Virus record (IMG/VR): IMGVR_UViG_2862465376_000001
Coordinates: 64,001-128,000 of that record
DNA: 64,000 nt
Source of the DNA: a virus
Taxonomy: Duplodnaviria > Caudoviricetes
Reading direction: 5' to 3' (one strand)
In this document: positions 4,611 through 59,301 of the stretch, piece after piece
Layout: each line of letters begins with the position of its first letter
Position numbering within the stretch: the first letter of the stretch is position 1
Notes under the pieces: generated by a model
Told to the model about the DNA's origin: nothing
Databases searched by the model: none
The model's input: the letters and a program-made list of their open reading frames with translations, nothing else
Translations under genes and position numbers: made by a program

Positions 4611-7600
4611 ATGGCCGACCTGTATCCGGACTACGCCGCGCTGGCCGCCGCGCGGCAGATCGGCGTGGACTACCGGCTGCTGGTGCGTACTCCTCCGGGC
4701 TCCCGGCTGGCTCACATCGCAATCCACGGCGGCGGCATCGAGCCGGGCACGCTGGAGATCGCCGACTACCTGGCCGGGTCGGCCAGCCGCTTCTACGCGT
4801 TCGACGGCATGCTGACGTCGGGCAACTCCGACCTGTACATCACCTCGACCAACTACGACGAGCCGCAGGTCCTGGACCTCGTCGCGGCCAGCGACTACGT
4901 CATTTCCTGGCACGGAACGGCCGGGGACGAACAGGTGACGTACGTCGGGGGCCTGGACACCGAGATCGCGTCCCGGCTGCAGGACGAGCTGGCGCGGGCC
5001 GGGTTCGCGGTCGAGGCGGGCGACACGGAGCTGAACAGCTCGGACCCTGCGAACGTCGTGAACAAGGGCTCGCGCGCCAAGGGCGTGCAGCTGGAGCTGA
5101 CGGCCGCGCTGCGTGAGGCGTTCTTCGAGGACTTCAGCCGAGACGGCCGGGACAGCGGTCCCCGGACCGCCCTGTTCTACGCCTACGTCACGGCGGTCCA
5201 GACCGCGCTCAACGGACTGGACGTGCCGGTCAAGGCAGTGGGCACGTCGGCGCGCACCTCGGCTCGGCCGGTCAGTGCGACGGGCTCGGTCTCGGGCGAC
5301 TACGGAATCCCGGCGCTGGCGCCCTTGACCGTGGACGGCATGCCCCTTGACTCGCTCAAGGACGCGGTCAGGCTCGCCAGCAAGCGGCAGGTCAGCGCGG
5401 ACAATGAGCGGTTCTGGTCCAGCGCGCCCCGGCCCAACGGGGATCCGGTGCGGGAGGTCTTCGAGTTCGCTCTGGCCTCGGACCGGCCGGTCAACAGGGT
5501 GGCGTTCTCTCTGGCACGGTTCCCGCAGCGGGCCTGGGTGCAGTACCGGGACCGGGACGGCCTGTGGCACCCCCTGCTCCAGAAGGGCGGCGGTCCGGTC
5601 CAGATCAGCATCATGGACTCGGTCCCGGCGGTCATCCCGACCGGTGTGGCCGACGAGGTGAAGCTGCACCCGCAGCACTTCGGGGCCGGGCACTGGATGC
5701 CCCAGCTGGTCGACGTGGAGCCGGTGACCGCGAGCCGGTTCCGGATCGTCATGACCCGGCTGCCGTCGTCGTCGGCGCCGCGCGCCCTGGACGGGCAGAC
5801 GGTGCCCTACTCGCTCGGGGTCAAGGATGCTCTGGTGTCCTACCGGGCCGCGTCCCTGGCCGACCTGCCGTGGCTTCCCCAGGTCGACGCCGAGAACACG
5901 GTGCCGATCGCCGGGTCGACCGACATCCTCGGCTCGCAGGTCGACTACGTCCTGCGCCGGAACCGGGCGGCGAACCTGGTGCCGCCCGCGACCGGTATCT
6001 GGCGGTGTGCTCCGCAGCCGGTACCGAACGCCGTGGTGAGCCTGTACCTGGATCTGAGGACGTCCGAGGGCGCCGGTCAGGTCGTGGACCGGCTGTACGT
6101 TGACCCGGTCACCTCCGGGCCGTCGGTGAACCTGTACTACACGGACGAGACGGTGGTGCCGGACCGGTTCGTCCCGAGCGACACCCCGCTGACCCTGCCC
6201 CTGGTCCGGGCCGCGTCCGAGATGCCGACGGCGGACTCCGAGGGGCTGCTGTTCGAGACGTCCCGCTCGTACCTGGACATCGACAACCGGGCCTGCCAGT
6301 TCGATCCGGGTGAGCCGTTCCTGCTGGCCATGACGGTCCAGCCGCAGTTCACCTCGGACGAGACCGGTCAATGGACCATCCTGGACACGCCTGCACTCAC
6401 GGTCATGATCAGCGATGGCGTGCTGACCGTACGCCTGGGCGAGCGGACGGTGGAGCTGGACCGGGCCCTCTTCGGCTTCAATGCCCGCATCCCGCTTGCC
6501 GTCGCCTACGACGGCTCGACGCTGACCGTGCGCACCCCGTGGGACACGCGGATCCAGGAGCACACCCACGTCCAGGGCATGGCGCCGCCGAACATCATCC
6601 GCCTCGGCGGGCCGCTGCAGGGCGAAGGCGGTGCCATGCGGCTGGTCAACCTCTTCCTCGCGCGCGGCCGGGCCGCCGATGTCACCACGATCGAGGAGTA
6701 CTGGGATAGCCCGGCCGCCTACGCGCTGCCGCCGGGACACAACGTGGACCCCACCACGCACACCAGCGCCAGCGCGCTGCTGCGGATGGATCCGGTGCTC
6801 ATCACCCCGGGCGCCGACTCGGTGTGTCCGTGGGGGCTGATCGGTGGCCCTCCGGTCGCCACCGACGAGCTGGTGTGGACGCCGGTCCCGGGCGACTACA
6901 CCTTGCGCAAGGGGTTGCTGAAGTTCCGGCCGGTCAAGGCCCGGCACCTGAAGATGGAGTTCACCAACCTGCAGCCGATGGTGCTCACCCCGTCGCAGGC
7001 CTCGCCGCTGGTGGAGACGCAGCTGTTTCCTCCCGACAGCGGGCAGCCGTCCGGGGTGATGGCCACGGGCACGTCGGTGTCGGGTGCGGCCCCGGCCGGG
7101 GCGCGGGTGGCGACCGAGCAGGGGGCGGTCTACCAGTACATCGACGCGAACCGCATCGTCGGCGGCGCCGCCAGCGATGTGCCGTACAAGTCGACTGAGG
7201 CGCTGTACGCGCCGGACCCGCTCGCCGCCCAGCAGCTGCGGCGCTCGGGCCAGCGGTTCCCGTACATGCCGCTGCCGGGCACCCGCTCACCCCGGTTCAC
7301 CAGCACCGGCCGTCACCGGTACCAGACGATGCAGCTGGCCATGGATACGAAGGTCGGCTACACCGTGGCGATCAGCCAGGTGCTGGCCTACCTCGCCGAC
7401 CCGGTCGCCCAGCGGGACACCGAGCAGTACGTGGAGCTTTTCCACGACACCACGTACCTGACTGGGTACACCGACAGCGAGCAGGGCGGCTGGAAGCACA
7501 CCGGGTCCGCGATGGTCACGACTGGCCAGCCGCCGTGGACGGGCACCCGGATGACGTCGAAGGCGTTCATCTCCAAGCGCCGGGTGCTGGCGGTGCAGTT

Positions 7601-8789
7601 CGCGGCGCAGACCTCGGAGGCCCAGCAGCTGGTCGCCGACCCGGACTTCGACGACCCGAGCCTGCGGTACTGGCGGCCGGTCGGGGACGCCACCATCAAG
7701 TCCTCGGACCGGTACGCGTCCACCATCGGCCGGATGGCCGAGGTCGCGCGCGGGCACTCCGTGTCGTCCTGGGGAGCCCTGGAGTCCCGGTTCCCGACCT
7801 GGGGCGACTTCGAGGAGTCCAACCCCCTGCCCAACCGGCCTCTGTGGTGGGAGGTGGAGAACTCCACCAGCGAGGCGGACCTGGGCGGAATCGAGTCGCT
7901 GCAGCCCGTCCAGCCCGCGCCGGGCGGACGCCTGTACGGGGCAGCCCGCGTCTACACCACGGGGCCGCTGCAGCAGCCTCTCCTCCTGCAGCTGGTCAAC
8001 GGGGACGGCCGGGTCCTCGCGCAGGCATCCCAGACCATCAACGCCGCCCAGATCGCGGAGTGGTACGTCGGCGTGACCGTCCGCACCAGCGCTCCGTCCG
8101 GCTCGGTCACCTGGGACACGGTCTCCGCCAGCGGCACCCGCACCTGGGGCGGGGTGGAGGCCCTCGGCATGTGGGGCGACGTCACCCAGGACTGGGACGT
8201 CGACAACATCCATGACGTCCGGGTCCGGGTCATCCAGCAGGGAGAGGCGGGAACGGACGCCTGGCACACCGACAGCCTGGCCGTGTTCAACGACCCCATC
8301 ATCTGGGAGATCTCCCGCGACGGAGGCATCACCTGGTACGAGATGCTGAACATCCGCAACAACCCGCGCGGCGTGTTCCAGTTCCCCGAACTGCCCGCCG
8401 TCGACCGCTCCGGCGGCACCCAGCTCCGGTGGCGGGCCACCGGCTACGCCCCCGATCTGTCGGTGTCGTCGGTCGTCCTGCGCCCCTGGTACGCCACGCT
8501 GTCCGGCGCCGTCCCCTACCTCGACACGCTGCAGGCGGCGGGCTCGCCGTCGTCGCTCGCCGACTACTACCCGCCGGTGGAGGCCGACCCGCTGTTCCAG
8601 GGCTGGCAGCACCCCATCCCGCAGGACTGGTGGCTGGCCTCGCGCCAGTGGCTGCGGCAGACCGCCCCGAAGACCGACCCGCTGCCCGCAATCACCCTGC
8701 CCGAGGCCGTCGCCGAGGGAACAGACGAGGGCAACCCGCCGTCCCCGGCGAAGCGCTCCCTCACCGACGCGTTCGTCCTCAACCGCTAA
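4611..8789 (+). CDS. large virion/tail protein with N-terminal poly-gamma-glutamate hydrolase (PghP/DUF867-like) domain
   Basis: N-terminal ~200 aa has AIHGGGIEPGT, ITSTNYDEP, SWHG and GVQLEL motifs; remainder beta-rich, with a Trp-repeat segment; lies in the tail module. Confidence 0.78.
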   Translation: MADLYPDYAALAAARQIGVDYRLLVRTPPGSRLAHIAIHGGGIEPGTLEIADYLAGSASRFYAFDGMLTSGNSDLYITSTNYDEPQVLDLVAASDYVISWHGTAGDEQVTYVGGLDTEIASRLQDELARAGFAVEAGDTELNSSDPANVVNKGSRAKGVQLELTAALREAFFEDFSRDGRDSGPRTALFYAYVTAVQTALNGLDVPVKAVGTSARTSARPVSATGSVSGDYGIPALAPLTVDGMPLDSLKDAVRLASKRQVSADNERFWSSAPRPNGDPVREVFEFALASDRPVNRVAFSLARFPQRAWVQYRDRDGLWHPLLQKGGGPVQISIMDSVPAVIPTGVADEVKLHPQHFGAGHWMPQLVDVEPVTASRFRIVMTRLPSSSAPRALDGQTVPYSLGVKDALVSYRAASLADLPWLPQVDAENTVPIAGSTDILGSQVDYVLRRNRAANLVPPATGIWRCAPQPVPNAVVSLYLDLRTSEGAGQVVDRLYVDPVTSGPSVNLYYTDETVVPDRFVPSDTPLTLPLVRAASEMPTADSEGLLFETSRSYLDIDNRACQFDPGEPFLLAMTVQPQFTSDETGQWTILDTPALTVMISDGVLTVRLGERTVELDRALFGFNARIPLAVAYDGSTLTVRTPWDTRIQEHTHVQGMAPPNIIRLGGPLQGEGGAMRLVNLFLARGRAADVTTIEEYWDSPAAYALPPGHNVDPTTHTSASALLRMDPVLITPGADSVCPWGLIGGPPVATDELVWTPVPGDYTLRKGLLKFRPVKARHLKMEFTNLQPMVLTPSQASPLVETQLFPPDSGQPSGVMATGTSVSGAAPAGARVATEQGAVYQYIDANRIVGGAASDVPYKSTEALYAPDPLAAQQLRRSGQRFPYMPLPGTRSPRFTSTGRHRYQTMQLAMDTKVGYTVAISQVLAYLADPVAQRDTEQYVELFHDTTYLTGYTDSEQGGWKHTGSAMVTTGQPPWTGTRMTSKAFISKRRVLAVQFAAQTSEAQQLVADPDFDDPSLRYWRPVGDATIKSSDRYASTIGRMAEVARGHSVSSWGALESRFPTWGDFEESNPLPNRPLWWEVENSTSEADLGGIESLQPVQPAPGGRLYGAARVYTTGPLQQPLLLQLVNGDGRVLAQASQTINAAQIAEWYVGVTVRTSAPSGSVTWDTVSASGTRTWGGVEALGMWGDVTQDWDVDNIHDVRVRVIQQGEAGTDAWHTDSLAVFNDPIIWEISRDGGITWYEMLNIRNNPRGVFQFPELPAVDRSGGTQLRWRATGYAPDLSVSSVVLRPWYATLSGAVPYLDTLQAAGSPSSLADYYPPVEADPLFQGWQHPIPQDWWLASRQWLRQTAPKTDPLPAITLPEAVAEGTDEGNPPSPAKRSLTDAFVLNR

Positions 8790-8798
8790 GGAGCCCCC

Positions 8799-9572
8799 GT
8801 GCGCGCCCACTTCAACCGTGCCCTCCTGGACAGGGAGGGCAACCAGGTCGACACGGCCACGATCCGGCTCCGCGTCGCCGGGAGCACCGACCTGCTCACC
8901 GACACCGTCTACACCAACGCCACCGGCGGCGCCACGTACACCAACCCGTGGGAGGCCGTCGGCGGCGAGGTCGACTTCTACCTCGACTCGCCGACCCGGC
9001 TGCAGATCGGTATCACGGTCGGCGCCGACCCCGAGCAGCTCTGGGACGACGTCGATGTCCTCGCGGTCGGCGCGGACTCCTCCCACCCGGGCACCGGAGC
9101 GGACTCCACCCAGGTCGGCGCGGACTCCCTGTCGTCCGGCCAGGGATCGACGTCCCTGGGCACCGGCGCGCAGGCCACTGCCGACCTCTCCACGGCTCTC
9201 GGATACCAGACGGCGACCAGCGAGGCCGGAAGCATCGCCGTAGGCTCCCAGGCGGCCGCCTCGCAGGCCGGGGCCATTGCGGTGGGCCAGTCGGCTCTGT
9301 CGTCCGGCGCCCAGGCCACCACGCTCGGCGATGCCGCCCAGGCCGTCTACGACCACTCCACGGCTATCGGCGCGGGCGCTGCGACCGACCGGCCCAACCA
9401 GGTCCGGCTCGGCACGGAGCAGGACCAGGTCGACATCCCCGGTACGGTCACCCTGCGCAGCCCAGGCGGAATCCCGTTCCTCCTCGGTGTCACCGACACG
9501 GGCATGCTGTTCACGCAGAAGCTGCCCCCGTACGTTCCGCCGACACCGCCCGACGAGGGCGGCGGAGAGTAG
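8799..9572 (+). CDS. tail fibre-like protein with YadA/Hep-Hag-type head repeats
   Basis: 14-aa periodic STALG/SIAVG/AIAVG/STAIG repeats; N-terminal domain shared with the 9632 and 12567 ORFs. Confidence 0.68.
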   Translation: MRAHFNRALLDREGNQVDTATIRLRVAGSTDLLTDTVYTNATGGATYTNPWEAVGGEVDFYLDSPTRLQIGITVGADPEQLWDDVDVLAVGADSSHPGTGADSTQVGADSLSSGQGSTSLGTGAQATADLSTALGYQTATSEAGSIAVGSQAAASQAGAIAVGQSALSSGAQATTLGDAAQAVYDHSTAIGAGAATDRPNQVRLGTEQDQVDIPGTVTLRSPGGIPFLLGVTDTGMLFTQKLPPYVPPTPPDEGGGE

Positions 9573-14256: not shown

Positions 14257-15810
14257 ATGGATGCGCCCGCCTTCCGCAGCCCGCGCGGGCTCTACCCGTG
14301 CCAGCAGGAAGGCACCGCGTTCGCCTACGTGCAGCGCTCCGGACTGCTGGTGGCCGACACCGGCATCGGCAAGAGCGTCATCGCCATGGCCCTCGCCGCC
14401 CTGCTCGCCGAGGACGGCGCCGAGGACCTGGTCCTCCTCGTCTGCAAGGCCAACAAGCTCACCGAGTGGCACGAGGACTTCGGCGCCCTTACCACGCTCC
14501 CGGCCGCCGTCCACCACGGCCCCTCCCGCATGAAGGCCCGCGAGCGCGACGGCCTGCCCCACGTCCTGATCTCCACGTACGAGACCCTGCGCGCCGACCT
14601 CACGCGCTTCGCCATCCCGCCCGGCAAGCGCACCAAGGTCCCCGCCCCCGGGCCGCTCCTGACCGCACTCCTCGACGCCCAGGCCCGGGGCCGCCGCGTC
14701 CTCGTGGTCTACGACGAGATGTCCGACAAGCTGCGCAACCGCTCCAGCCAGCTCTACAAGGCCCACCACTACGCCCTCGGCCAGCTGCGCCGCGTCCAGA
14801 AGGACCTGCGCGTCATCGGCCTGACCGCCACCCCGATCAGCCGGGACTACGAGGACGGCTTCAACCTGCTGCGCCTCGCGGTCCCGGCCGCCATGCCCAC
14901 GGTGAAGCAGTTCAACGACACCGTGATCAAGAGCCGGGACGACTACGGCCGCCCGCGCTACCGCGACACCGGCGTCGACTGGTTCATCGGGCTGGCCCGG
15001 CCGCACCTGTGGCGCAAGCGCAAGACCGACCCCGACGTCCGCGCCCTGTTCCCCAAGCGCATCGAGGAGTTCCGCACGCTGCGCATGGCGCCCGCCCAGG
15101 CCGCCTTCTACGACCAGGTCGCCTCGCTCCAGGGCGGCTCCCCGGAGCCCGTCCCCGGCCTCCACGCGGCCCTGCGGCAGATCGCCGCGCACCCGGCCGC
15201 CCTGGTCCACTCAGCCGTCCACGGAGACTCCCGGCTCGCCCGCGAGCTGCTCGGCGCCTTCGGAGAGGACCATCTGCGCTCGCTGCCCTCGGCCAAGACC
15301 GACGAACTTGTCGAGTACCTGTCACCCATCGTGCACGACCAGGGCGACAAGGCCGTCGTCTTCTCCGCCTTCGGCCCGTCCGTCCTGCCCCTGCTCGCCG
15401 AGGCCCTGCGCAGAAACGGCATCCGCAGCTACCTCTACACCGGCGCCATGGACGGCCCCGAGCGCGAGCGCGCCCGCCGCGAGTTCCGCGCCGACCCCGA
15501 GCCCTGCGTCTTCCTCACCTCCGACGCGGGCAAGGACGGCATCAACCTGCCCGAGGCCACCTACCTGGTCGAGTACGAGTCCGCCCTGACCTACGAGACC
15601 CGCACCCAGCGCCTGGGCCGCATCGACCGCATCACCTCGACCGCGCCCTCCATCACCTGCACCACGCTCGTCCTGCAGGGCACCGTGGAGGAGGCCATCG
15701 TCGACACCATGCTGAAGCGGAACGAGATGACCGAGCGGTTCCTGGGCGACGTCGGCTCGGACGGCTACGTGGCGGCTATGCAGCGGCGCCGGAGCTACCT
15801 GGTGGCCTAG
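14257..15810 (+). CDS. SNF2-family helicase
   Basis: ADTGIGKS Walker A, LTATP, SAKTDELV, SDAGKDGINL, QRLGRIDR; alternative GTG start at 14239. Confidence 0.85.
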   Translation: MDAPAFRSPRGLYPCQQEGTAFAYVQRSGLLVADTGIGKSVIAMALAALLAEDGAEDLVLLVCKANKLTEWHEDFGALTTLPAAVHHGPSRMKARERDGLPHVLISTYETLRADLTRFAIPPGKRTKVPAPGPLLTALLDAQARGRRVLVVYDEMSDKLRNRSSQLYKAHHYALGQLRRVQKDLRVIGLTATPISRDYEDGFNLLRLAVPAAMPTVKQFNDTVIKSRDDYGRPRYRDTGVDWFIGLARPHLWRKRKTDPDVRALFPKRIEEFRTLRMAPAQAAFYDQVASLQGGSPEPVPGLHAALRQIAAHPAALVHSAVHGDSRLARELLGAFGEDHLRSLPSAKTDELVEYLSPIVHDQGDKAVVFSAFGPSVLPLLAEALRRNGIRSYLYTGAMDGPERERARREFRADPEPCVFLTSDAGKDGINLPEATYLVEYESALTYETRTQRLGRIDRITSTAPSITCTTLVLQGTVEEAIVDTMLKRNEMTERFLGDVGSDGYVAAMQRRRSYLVA

Positions 15811-56424: not shown

Positions 56425-56754
56425 TCAGGCAGAGTCGCCGATCCGCTCCACGTCGCCTGTCGCCGCCAGGCTCAGCTCCACGTCGTTGTCGAAGAGCACC
56501 CGGTACGGGAACGGGGACACGTACCGGCGCACGAGCGTGATGCGCCCCGGCGCCCCGGCGGGCACGTCGTAGGGGACCCGGCAGTCCTCACCCTCCTGTT
56601 CCAGGTCCTCGTCAATGTACGAGCCGCGTAGCCGCCGCACCGCCTGCACCCGGTCACCCTCCCTCAGCGTGAGCGAGCCGACGTGCACGCGCCGGGCCAC
56701 CTCCAGCTTCTCCTCGAAGGTCAGGGTGTCGAGCTTGGCGTCGAGGGTGCTCAT
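56425..56754 (-). CDS. small hypothetical protein
   Basis: ATGA coupling to the 57107 gene, GGAG RBS. Confidence 0.55.
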   Translation of the reverse strand: MSTLDAKLDTLTFEEKLEVARRVHVGSLTLREGDRVQAVRRLRGSYIDEDLEQEGEDCRVPYDVPAGAPGRITLVRRYVSPFPYRVLFDNDVELSLAATGDVERIGDSA

Positions 56755-57107
56755 CGCGGCAGTGCTCCATTCGGTCGGTCGGGGAAGTCGGCGATCGGGC
56801 TGCAGGGGATCGTCCAGGTGTCCGGCCCGGTCCGCGTCCACCCAGCCGTCGCCACGGCGCTGAGCTTGTCGACCGGGTCGTCGAAACGTTGGGGGTCACC
56901 GGCCGACCGATCCGGCATGAACCCCCGCTCGATCAGCCGGTACCCTAGCCCGCCGCCCGGAATGTAGTCCGGGCCGGTGCTGTCCTCAACGACCATCACG
57001 TACTCGTCGTCGATGCCGGTGCCCTCGACGGTCAGCCACCACCGGCCCTTCTTGTCGGCCCGCGCCGTGGCGGTGCGGACATCGGCGGCGGTCTCGGTCT
57101 CGCTCAT
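56751..57107 (-). CDS. small acidic hypothetical protein
   Basis: AGGAGG RBS; divergent from the CRISPR-like cluster. Confidence 0.6.
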   Translation of the reverse strand: MSETETAADVRTATARADKKGRWWLTVEGTGIDDEYVMVVEDSTGPDYIPGGGLGYRLIERGFMPDRSAGDPQRFDDPVDKLSAVATAGWTRTGPDTWTIPCSPIADFPDRPNGALPR

Positions 57108-57140: not shown

Positions 57141-57182
57141 TCTCGCGGAAGCTCCTCCGGCCGCGCGAGATTCTGCTAACTT
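57141..57182 (+). promoter_or_regulatory. extended -10 promoter and inverted repeat upstream of the CRISPR-like cluster
   Basis: TG-C-TAACTT (57174-57182) ending 7 nt before repeat 1; IR TCTCGCG/CGCGAGA at 57141-57170. Confidence 0.45.
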
Positions 57183-57189
57183 CGTAGAC

Positions 57190-57495
57190 GTGCTCCCCGC
57201 GACAGCGGGGATGGCCCCAGCCTCAGGGGCGTGCACAACTGCTCCCCGCACCTGCGGGGATGGCCCTCGTTAAGGGCAGAGGTGCATTGTTCCCCGCATC
57301 TGCGGGGGTGTACCGGTTGACGAGCACGGTGGTTGAGTGCCCGGAGACTCTTCCCCGCCGACGCGGGGGTGGCTCGGCTTGGTACTTCGAGTAGTCCCCG
57401 CACTGGCGGGGGTGGCTCCGCTCCGGCGGAGGTGGATCGCAACGGCGCAAGCCACGTGGTCAGCAAGATCGCTCCGCGCACGCGGAGGTGAAGGG
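57190..57495 (+). CRISPR. orphan, divergent type I-E-like repeat cluster (7 units)
   Basis: 29-nt units N5-CYCCGC-N4-GCGGRG-N8 at 57190, 57239, 57287, 57348, 57391, 57411 (overlapping) and 57467; spacers 20, 19, 32, 14, none and 27 nt; no cas genes in the window. Confidence 0.8.
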
Positions 57496-57522
57496 CCCCG
57501 ACCTCTTCCGGGGCCCTTCTTC
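57490..57522 (+). terminator. intrinsic terminator closing the repeat cluster
   Basis: GAAGGGCCCCG-ACCTCTTC-CGGGGCCCTTC-TTC. Confidence 0.7.
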
Positions 57523-57654
57523 ATGTCCGGCACAGGATCACCACGGCGGCGGCCAGGAGCAGGACGGTGCCCCAGAATCCTCCGATGAGGACCAGGGCGG
57601 CGCGGGCGTAGGGGTGCAGCGGTGTGTGGCGGGTCACGGCGCCCAGTGTGCCCG

Positions 57655-58539: not shown

Positions 58540-59301
58540 TCAGGTGCTGCTGCTGCGGTCGTTGATGGCTGGGGGACGGAAGTTGTAGCGCTGCGGGTTG
58601 CGGAATTCGTCGTCGAGCCGTTCTACGAGCCATGCTCGGATGATCTGTGTGACCTTCGGGGCCCACGTCAGTTTGCCGTGGGCCAGCAGTTCGTGCCCTA
58701 GGTCCTCGGCCTGCTTCCGCAAGGCGGGGTCCACTCGGATGTTCAGGTTGACCGACTTCGCCCCGTCGCCTCGGGCTGCTCGTACGGGCTGCTTAGGGGT
58801 GAACCGTCCGGCGAGGAACTCCTGCAGCGCCTGGTGTGCCTCGCCGTCAAGGCTGGCTCCGGAGATTACTGCAGCGGCCTTGATGTCGTCCCTCAGTGTT
58901 TCCGGCAGTCTCAGGGGCAGGTTCGGCTTCTTCTGGATCACCCTCTTTTGGTTGAGGCGGCGGGCGAAGTCTTCCCCCTCTTCGGTGAGCATGGAGGCCA
59001 CTGCCTCGGCCATCTGTCGGAGCGAGGCGGGAGCCGGGAATGCAGGGGAGGGCAGGGCTGAGTCGATGGTCGTCATGTCTGCCAGCTTGTGCAGAGTGGC
59101 AGCGGCCTGCTGAATCTGTTCGGCACGTTGCTGGTCGTGGAGATCTTGCCTCTCGTCCTCAGCAAGGTGCCCCTCGCAGGACGGCTGCGTTCCAGCGGGG
59201 TAATAGCACGCGGGTTCCCGACAGAGGACTCCGTCGCTGTAGCGCAGGCACAGCAGCTCGCTGGTGACAGTGGAGTGCATGGACCGCACTCTACTCAGCA
59301 T
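58540..59301 (-). CDS. double ribbon-helix-helix DNA-binding protein (start uncertain)
   Basis: KPNLPLRLPETLRDDIKAAA and SVNLNIRVDPALRKQAE. Confidence 0.55.
   Translation of the reverse strand: MLSRVRSMHSTVTSELLCLRYSDGVLCREPACYYPAGTQPSCEGHLAEDERQDLHDQQRAEQIQQAAATLHKLADMTTIDSALPSPAFPAPASLRQMAEAVASMLTEEGEDFARRLNQKRVIQKKPNLPLRLPETLRDDIKAAAVISGASLDGEAHQALQEFLAGRFTPKQPVRAARGDGAKSVNLNIRVDPALRKQAEDLGHELLAHGKLTWAPKVTQIIRAWLVERLDDEFRNPQRYNFRPPAINDRSSST

Follow-up and report, generated by a model that had tools for sequence, protein, structure and literature searches.

Racrs are RNA anti-CRISPRs encoded as solitary repeat units, and the pipeline set up for their search discards repeats clustered within 100 bp, regarding them as arrays (Camara-Wilpert et al., Nature 2023, PMC10651486). 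Cracr arrays repress as well as compete, and the criterion set for their guides is that at least 9 PAM-proximal nucleotides be shared with the guide of a host CreR or CreA (Liu et al., bioRxiv 10.1101/2024.10.29.618823). CreR and CreA are crRNA-like regulators of the host, and have been described along with CreTA modules (Liu et al., bioRxiv 10.1101/2023.03.10.532045). The locus described in this work is a cluster of seven type I-E-like repeat hairpins, 29 nt each, lying within 306 nt (57190-57495) on the + strand of a 64-kb stretch of viral DNA, hereafter the window. In our view the locus is likely to represent a type I-E Cracr array, in other words a phage/plasmid cassette of crRNA-like regulatory RNAs. 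The principle of Cracr arrays is not new and is already published as a preprint (bioRxiv 10.1101/2024.10.29.618823). The features of the locus are as follows.

57163..57189, + strand: leader, with a TG-extended -10-like element (TG at 57174-57175, hexamer at 57177-57182, about 8 nt before unit 1), read directly
57190..57218, + strand: unit 1, repeat mimic; 5' handle for guide 1
57219..57238, + strand: guide 1, 20 nt, imitating a CreA-like guide of the host; predicted to target a small membrane-protein gene, located between cas3 and cse1, in its 5' region
57239..57267, + strand: unit 2, 3' hairpin of guide 1 and 5' handle of guide 2
57268..57286, + strand: guide 2, 19 nt, imitating a CreR-like guide of the host; predicted to target a site immediately upstream of cse1
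57287..57315, + strand: unit 3
57316..57347, + strand: guide 3, 32 nt
57348..57376, + strand: unit 4
57377..57390, + strand: guide 4, 14 nt
57391..57439, + strand: units 5 and 6, back to back with a 9-nt overlap and no guide between them; switch of repeat family
57440..57466, + strand: guide 6, 27 nt
57467..57495, + strand: unit 7, terminal repeat mimic, its handle running into the terminator
57493..57522, + strand: terminator-like hairpin with an 8-bp G+C stem, an 8-nt loop and a T-rich tail, read directly

All units are made of a 6-bp stem, a 4-nt loop and 8 further nucleotides, and no two of them are the same, identities between pairs ranging from 14 to 24 of 29 positions. A perfect G+C stem with its loop is found in five of the seven units, and the remainder of the 64 kb has no exact match to this motif; the stem of units 6 and 7 is a variant in which one pair is T-A. 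The initial annotation, made from the sequence alone, had described the seven different units, their stems and loops and the overlap of unit 6 with unit 5 in just this way, and the compensatory stem change that it pointed out in units 6 and 7 is found in nature as the stem of a Streptomyces I-E repeat family. The 8 nucleotides closing each unit, which it had regarded as a 3' handle, must be read differently. Cas6e leaves the 8 nt that follow each I-E hairpin as the 5' handle of the next RNA; since the units have the orientation of the E. coli I-E repeat, the 8 nt 3' of each hairpin would be the 5' handle of the following RNA. When two mismatches are allowed the motif is matched 27 times in the window, against 32 matches expected; there is no window-wide excess, and the signal therefore resides in the cluster. 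The spacer-like segments measure, in order, 20, 19, 32, 14 and 27 nt; lengths of 20 and 14 fit the rule "32 minus multiples of 6", while 19 and 27 do not fit exactly. Folding of the array region is more stable than that of any of 100 shuffled versions (z = -4.5).

The cluster had also been said to lie between an extended -10 and an intrinsic terminator. Both can be read directly, and leader and terminator stem are kept in an orthologous array described below, but a consensus scan called neither a sigma-70 promoter nor a terminator, the -10-like element and the end hairpin included. The terminator-like hairpin (57493-57522) probably serves both strands. No Rfam family matches the window. In a soil metatranscriptome, a 249-nt contig with 3 differences corresponds to 57205-57452, leaving the remainder of a 1.9-kb stretch uncovered; given that the library can contain DNA, and that strand and ends are not readable, the contig is a weak hint of expression of the array. 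A related DNA contig from a soil metagenome skips the interval 57201-57301, which includes guides 1 and 2. It would seem from this that modules are gained and lost via recombination between repeats, though joints in metagenome contigs call for caution.

Genes for a DnaE-type polymerase, DnaB, a helicase and TerL are found in the window, which is part of a large actinomycete phage-plasmid of about 157 kb. In agreement with the early remark that no cas operon is present, tblastn searches with six Cas proteins (Cas3, Cse1, Cse2, Cas7, Cas5, Cas6e) found no homologue in the window, which represents 64 kb of the ~157-kb element, nor was an adaptation module found in it. The array is surrounded by phage and plasmid genes, outside any CRISPR-Cas locus within the 64 kb. 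The view of the locus as a cas-less cassette, organized like a transcription unit and composed of repeat mimics borne by a mobile element, is supported. Flanking genes are a DUF2637 gene and an integrase-like gene, the latter with no relative in the genome-contig collection. A gene encoding a 118-aa protein (56751-57107, - strand) diverges from the array. The protein belongs to no known family and has homologues only in related ~150-kb phage-plasmid contigs; its position makes it a possible protein partner of the array, either an anti-CRISPR or a regulator. On the other side, a 38-aa membrane ORF with one hydrophobic segment (57521-57637, - strand) converges on the terminator, the integrase-like gene lying beyond. 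This ORF is 93% identical in contig L162, and is found also in the array-less relatives L165 and L166. The array is missing at the corresponding site in plasmid pRLB1-9.1, whose integrase-like protein is 75% identical, as in a 151-kb S. griseoaurantiacus contig and in several metagenome contigs. Its absence in three sets of relatives indicates that the site is a variable accessory spot. No PAM-flanked target of the guides is present in the window itself. A look-alike of the guide 1 seed (11 of 12 positions) at 58907-58926 (+ strand), in gene 58540-59301, has a non-PAM flank and is probably due to chance (~0.24 expected).

The metagenome contig L162 (156 kb) has an orthologous array of seven units in the corresponding place. 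Identity to the window at the nucleotide level is 96.4% in the units and 94.3% at guide positions 1-14, but falls to 78.6% from guide position 15 onward; the array as a whole is 93.5% identical, versus 80.4% for the neighbouring 118-aa gene. The leader is 87.8% identical, or, more precisely, invariant from about 57163 on and diverged further upstream. Units 1 and 4 show no differences, the single change in unit 2 retains the pair as G-U, and in unit 7 and the terminator the loops differ while the stems are intact. Guide 1 differs at position 1, guide 6 has one difference, and guide 3 is kept through positions 1-16 save position 6, its 3' half being largely diverged. Judged from sequence, this is the pattern to be expected of guides that would act via PAM-proximal pairing.

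The units have been compared to the modal repeats of real arrays in the sampled Streptomyces I-E loci, which fall into several families. Their nearest natural repeats are matched at 20-24 of 25 non-loop positions, and four families are involved. Units 1 and 2 agree with one family in 24 of 25 non-loop positions; unit 4 matches a common Streptomyces family, whose handle ends in CCG, at 24 of 29 positions and has an identical loop; unit 5 matches a third family at 22 of 25 non-loop positions; units 6 and 7 match at 20-21 of 25 a family bearing the T-A stem variant. For several units the best match is a natural family and not another unit of the window, and the stem variant of unit 6 is typical of host mini-arrays located upstream of cse1. 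Since different natural I-E families of Streptomyces are resembled, the cassette is multivalent, and the early proposal that the variants are matched to different host I-E systems is borne out in so far as the units resemble different repeat families.

Similar structures are carried by other mobile elements. A scan of viral contigs for two hairpins set at less than the canonical spacing returned 31 loci, about 20 of which are built like the locus of the window: repeats are all different, some are placed back to back, and a terminal hairpin closes every member of the family. This architecture, with spacer families in common, is found in ~20 viral contigs, as in several Streptomyces prophages and plasmids. 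Guides in these loci measure 14, 18, 20-21 or 32-33 nt. Guide families are common to several loci, in differing order, and their first ~11 nt are conserved, the 3' parts being variable. Back-to-back repeats such as units 5 and 6 occur also in L004, L010, L012, L019, L020, L029 and L032. A conserved motif of ~12 nt, probably a common promoter, is found 20-40 nt upstream of the first unit in L011, L015, L019, L020, L029, L032 and L052; the -10-like element of the window and L162 differs from it. Among 401 Streptomyces genomes, 13 contain short-spaced hairpin pairs. Most of these are single truncated spacers within real arrays, but five are clusters like that of the window, adjoining a phage portal, ParA or excisionase-like gene. 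One more such cluster resides on a 94-kb S. tubercidicus plasmid. In real arrays of Streptomyces, on the other hand, the repeats are identical and the spacers measure 32 nt.

Guides 1 and 2 have counterparts in Streptomyces I-E loci. I-E systems are frequent in this genus, Cse1 having been found in 68 of 161 sampled Streptomyces genomes, and about 90 Streptomyces cas neighbourhoods made up the host set. The predicted targets come from these sampled loci, on the presumption that the element meets I-E systems of such types. In four of the 401 genomes (G031, G127, G224, G384) a module consisting of a mini-array and a membrane ORF of 64-69 aa lies between cas3 and cse1, on the opposite strand (locus L104 of G031:C18, positions 4776-5142; also L155, L156 and L157). 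The guide of the mini-array is 20-33 nt long, and the ORF has hydrophobic segments. CreTA modules are reportedly treated also in a 2021 article by Li and colleagues in Science, and the sequence organization suggests that the modules found here are CreTA-like, the small ORF encoding a putative toxin. Across the four modules guide and target covary at three positions, the AAC flank is invariant, and mismatches fall at positions 6 and 12. In G031 the 20-nt guide has the same 5' handle as guide 1 and is identical to it at 17 of 20 positions (1-5 and 7-17 included), and in G224 the identity is likewise 17 of 20. The 69-aa ORF of G031 lies ~300 nt upstream of the mini-array, on the same strand, and the AAC-flanked guide match spans its ribosome-binding site and ends at its start codon. 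Guide 1 matches the target of G031 and G224 at 12 of 12 pairing positions within 1-14, and variants of guide 1 in the family of mobile arrays track the G127 variant. In G127 (locus L102, G127:C42) the module is bracketed by a ~80-bp direct repeat of the junction between the cas3 end and the cse1 start (reverse-complement positions 541-620 and 1203-1285), as would result from an insertion with duplication.

The counterpart of guide 2 resides on the S. anthocyanicus plasmid NZ_CP109103, in a mini-array found downstream of cas6e in a locus carrying a cse1-to-cas6e operon. The handle of unit 2 together with guide 2 matches this mini-array at 21 of 22 positions, guide positions 1-5 and 7-14 being the same, as is the handle. 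An AAC-flanked site is located 11-30 nt upstream of cse1, and is matched by guide 2 at 12 of 12 pairing positions, and by the host guide too. In the same locus (L158, positions 8736-9130 and 14285-14303) the short array downstream of cas6e closes with a guide of 20 nt directed to the 5' region of cse1, and is directly preceded by a 63-aa hydrophobic ORF. The PAM at the predicted targets of both guides is AAC, not the canonical AAG; host self-targets use both. Guides 1 and 2 thus share at least 9 PAM-proximal nucleotides with host guides, and partially match PAM-flanked sites at the 5' regions of cas or creT-like genes. In the hosts sampled such sharing is not seen for guides 3, 4 and 6.

The relationship extends to the family. 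In 668 kb of I-E neighbourhoods, a perfect 10-position seed beside AAC or AAG was found for 12 of 83 mobile-element guides, versus 0-3 (mean ~1) in 20 shuffles of the seeds, and the matches directly precede cse1 or small ORFs that have a mini-array as partner. Mini-arrays are themselves frequent in the sampled cas neighbourhoods, some being antisense just upstream of cse1, others elsewhere. Nearly all their guides have, within a few hundred bases, an AAG- or AAC-flanked site which the seed matches perfectly or nearly so. Mismatches between host guide and site prefer positions 6 and 12, which are unpaired in I-E Cascade. The pattern agrees with the published CreR and CreA. CreR-like mini-arrays lying antisense just upstream of cse1 were observed in another Streptomyces I-E lineage (L139, L142, L143, L144, L149), with an AAG-flanked seed match 120-220 nt away, and mismatches again at positions 6 and 12.

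The other guides are less easily placed. Guide 3 has a related guide in the viral contig L019, and guide 4 has related 14-nt guides in L012, L015 and G022. No host counterpart of guide 3 was found in the sampled Streptomyces I-E loci, plasmids and genomes searched. Short matches to it in plasmids and in five Streptomyces genomes fall in coding regions (SARP regulators, a ParA/CpaE-like ATPase), span the handle and have no PAM, and were put down to chance. Plasmid matches to the stretch formed by unit 3, guide 3 and unit 4 proved to be ordinary arrays of a similar repeat family. Guide 4 has no convincing site in the sampled cas neighbourhoods. For guide 6, neither the sampled I-E loci nor a genus-wide search for a PAM-plus-seed pattern revealed a host counterpart; the latter led to nothing but a repeated coding sequence of a single genome, with controls matching as often. 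A seed match of 9 of 10 positions in the cas3-cse1 spacer of pSglau1-type loci has a non-PAM flank and is within chance expectation, and a DNA search with guide 6 gave matches in coding sequence only. Guides 3, 4 and 6 may be pure competitors, or be aimed at hosts that were not sampled. According to a bolder view they would steer the host Cascade to silence genes beyond the CRISPR loci, such as other defence systems; the cassette would then be a general silencing device programmed by the phage, in which even a 14-nt guide, carried by a Cascade with about three Cas7 subunits, works in nature. We hold this to be rather unlikely.

The model that we favour is that of a type I-E Cracr array; we infer that the locus is transcribed, that the RNA is processed and loaded into Cascade, and that repression and an anti-CRISPR effect follow. 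A transcript of ~340 nt would run from the -10-like element to the terminator, and be cut by the host Cas6e at the base of each hairpin, so that each RNA would consist of a short guide with an 8-nt handle on its 5' side and a hairpin on its 3' side, the predicted sizes being ~49, 48, 61, 43 and 56 nt. These RNAs would enter the host Cascade, competing with the immune crRNAs. Given that guides are short, and pairing extends over only ~14 PAM-proximal positions, Cascade should bind DNA without destroying it. Guide 1 would park Cascade on the ribosome-binding region of the small membrane-protein gene, and so keep off a putative back-up toxin. Guide 2 would hold it immediately 5' of cse1 in a different I-E lineage, and so shut down the synthesis of Cascade. 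Four natural repeat families are imitated, and repeats are set back to back where the family changes, which suggests that one cassette serves several diverged host systems.

The anatomy of the locus, its conservation in relatives, the identity of two guides to host guides and the PAM-flanked seed matches are what the analysis shows, and rival explanations must be weighed as well. The initial annotation favoured a mechanism of the Racr type, in which the mimics do no more than titrate Cas6e, Cas7 and further subunits of Cascade, and what lies between them has no role as a guide. The mimicry of several natural repeat families, the lack of a guide between units 5 and 6, and the failure to identify a target for three of the five guides go well with a decoy, and competition with crRNAs belongs to the mechanism of Cracr arrays too. 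Yet conservation is about as high at guide positions 1-14 as in the repeats, the 3' portions of the guides being free to drift, and guide seeds are common to unrelated elements in shuffled order. Sequestration alone supposes no relation between guide and target, but guides 1 and 2 equal host regulatory guides, match PAM-flanked sites, and thus have predicted host targets, their seed halves being conserved. Moreover, Racrs are solitary by definition, repeats clustered like the seven units found here in 306 nt being left aside by the search pipeline (PMC10651486). A pure decoy is therefore improbable, and the mechanism first proposed is not supported in that form: the sequences between repeats are conserved guides, two of which copy regulatory guides of the host.

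The locus might alternatively be a working mini-CRISPR array, which borrows host Cas proteins to fight competing phages or plasmids. Virus-borne mini-arrays aimed at rival viruses are known, and guide 3 has the canonical 32 nt and lies between repeats of one family. This is nonetheless very unlikely, as a search of 50,697 phage records and of a plasmid collection revealed no protospacer, full-length matches being what spacers of a canonical array should give in mobile elements. The four guides other than guide 3 fall short of the canonical spacer length, the window lacks an adaptation module, and the retention of the guide 3 seed in L162, in spite of the divergence of the 3' half, fits partial pairing and not full-length targeting. 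Nor are the repeats near-identical (14-24 of 29 positions) and the spacers uniformly of 32-33 nt (range 14-32 nt), as in canonical I-E arrays. Such irregularity, along with the lack of cas genes nearby and the absence of the array in some relatives of the element, could rather suggest an orphan CRISPR array decaying without function. We see next to no room for this explanation, and agree on this point with the initial annotation. The stems are all intact, their changes being wobble or compensated, and the array, with leader and terminator of its own, is better conserved in L162 than the flanking gene (93.5% versus 80.4%). The architecture recurs across many elements, and seed matches to host regulatory sites are far above those of shuffled controls.

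The type I-E Cracr array proposed here would be a concrete, testable Streptomyces case, unusually long, of phage RNA hijacking the circuits by which CRISPR systems regulate themselves. The analysis has also revealed, in the sampled Streptomyces I-E loci, a dense layer of crRNA-like regulators, located upstream of cse1, downstream of cas6e or in the CreTA-like module. Both may be relevant to the uneven native CRISPR immunity of Streptomyces and to the uneven behaviour of CRISPR tools in this genus, as to the host range of actinophages.

Three known systems bear comparison. The locus shares with Racrs the mimicry of repeats by a mobile element, the site just downstream of a promoter, the lack of cas genes and the competition for Cas proteins. 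Racrs are solitary, and sequester Cas proteins into aberrant subcomplexes; the locus of the window is in contrast clustered, and its conserved guides have predicted host targets. With the CreR and CreA of the host it shares the build of the RNA, and guides 1 and 2 are near-copies of guides of Streptomyces I-E mini-arrays. In contrast to CreR and CreA, which reside within or beside the cas operon that they regulate, and act on their own system, the copies of the window are placed at a variable site of a phage-plasmid, in a stretch of 64 kb where no cas genes were found, and would act against the host. Since guides 1 and 2 copy host regulatory guides and match PAM-flanked sites, the locus is grouped with Cracr arrays rather than with Racrs. 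Like Cracr arrays, it is borne by a virus or plasmid outside a cas locus, and stacks in one transcription unit short guides between degenerate repeats, as hairpin-guide-hairpin units resembling host repeats. Guides copy those of host CreR and CreA, and pair partially with PAM-flanked sites at cas and toxin genes, and different guides address variants of one subtype. The I-E Cracr arrays reported have two or three guides (bioRxiv 10.1101/2024.10.29.618823), whereas the window has five guides and seven repeat mimics drawn from four repeat families. Unlike the published arrays, the locus combines in one cassette a predicted toxin-silencing and a predicted cas-silencing guide, sets repeats back to back where the repeat family changes, has Streptomyces as host genus, and is known from sequence alone. 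In number of guides, variety of repeat families and their junctions, mix of predicted targets and Streptomyces origin, it extends the published picture of Cracr arrays.
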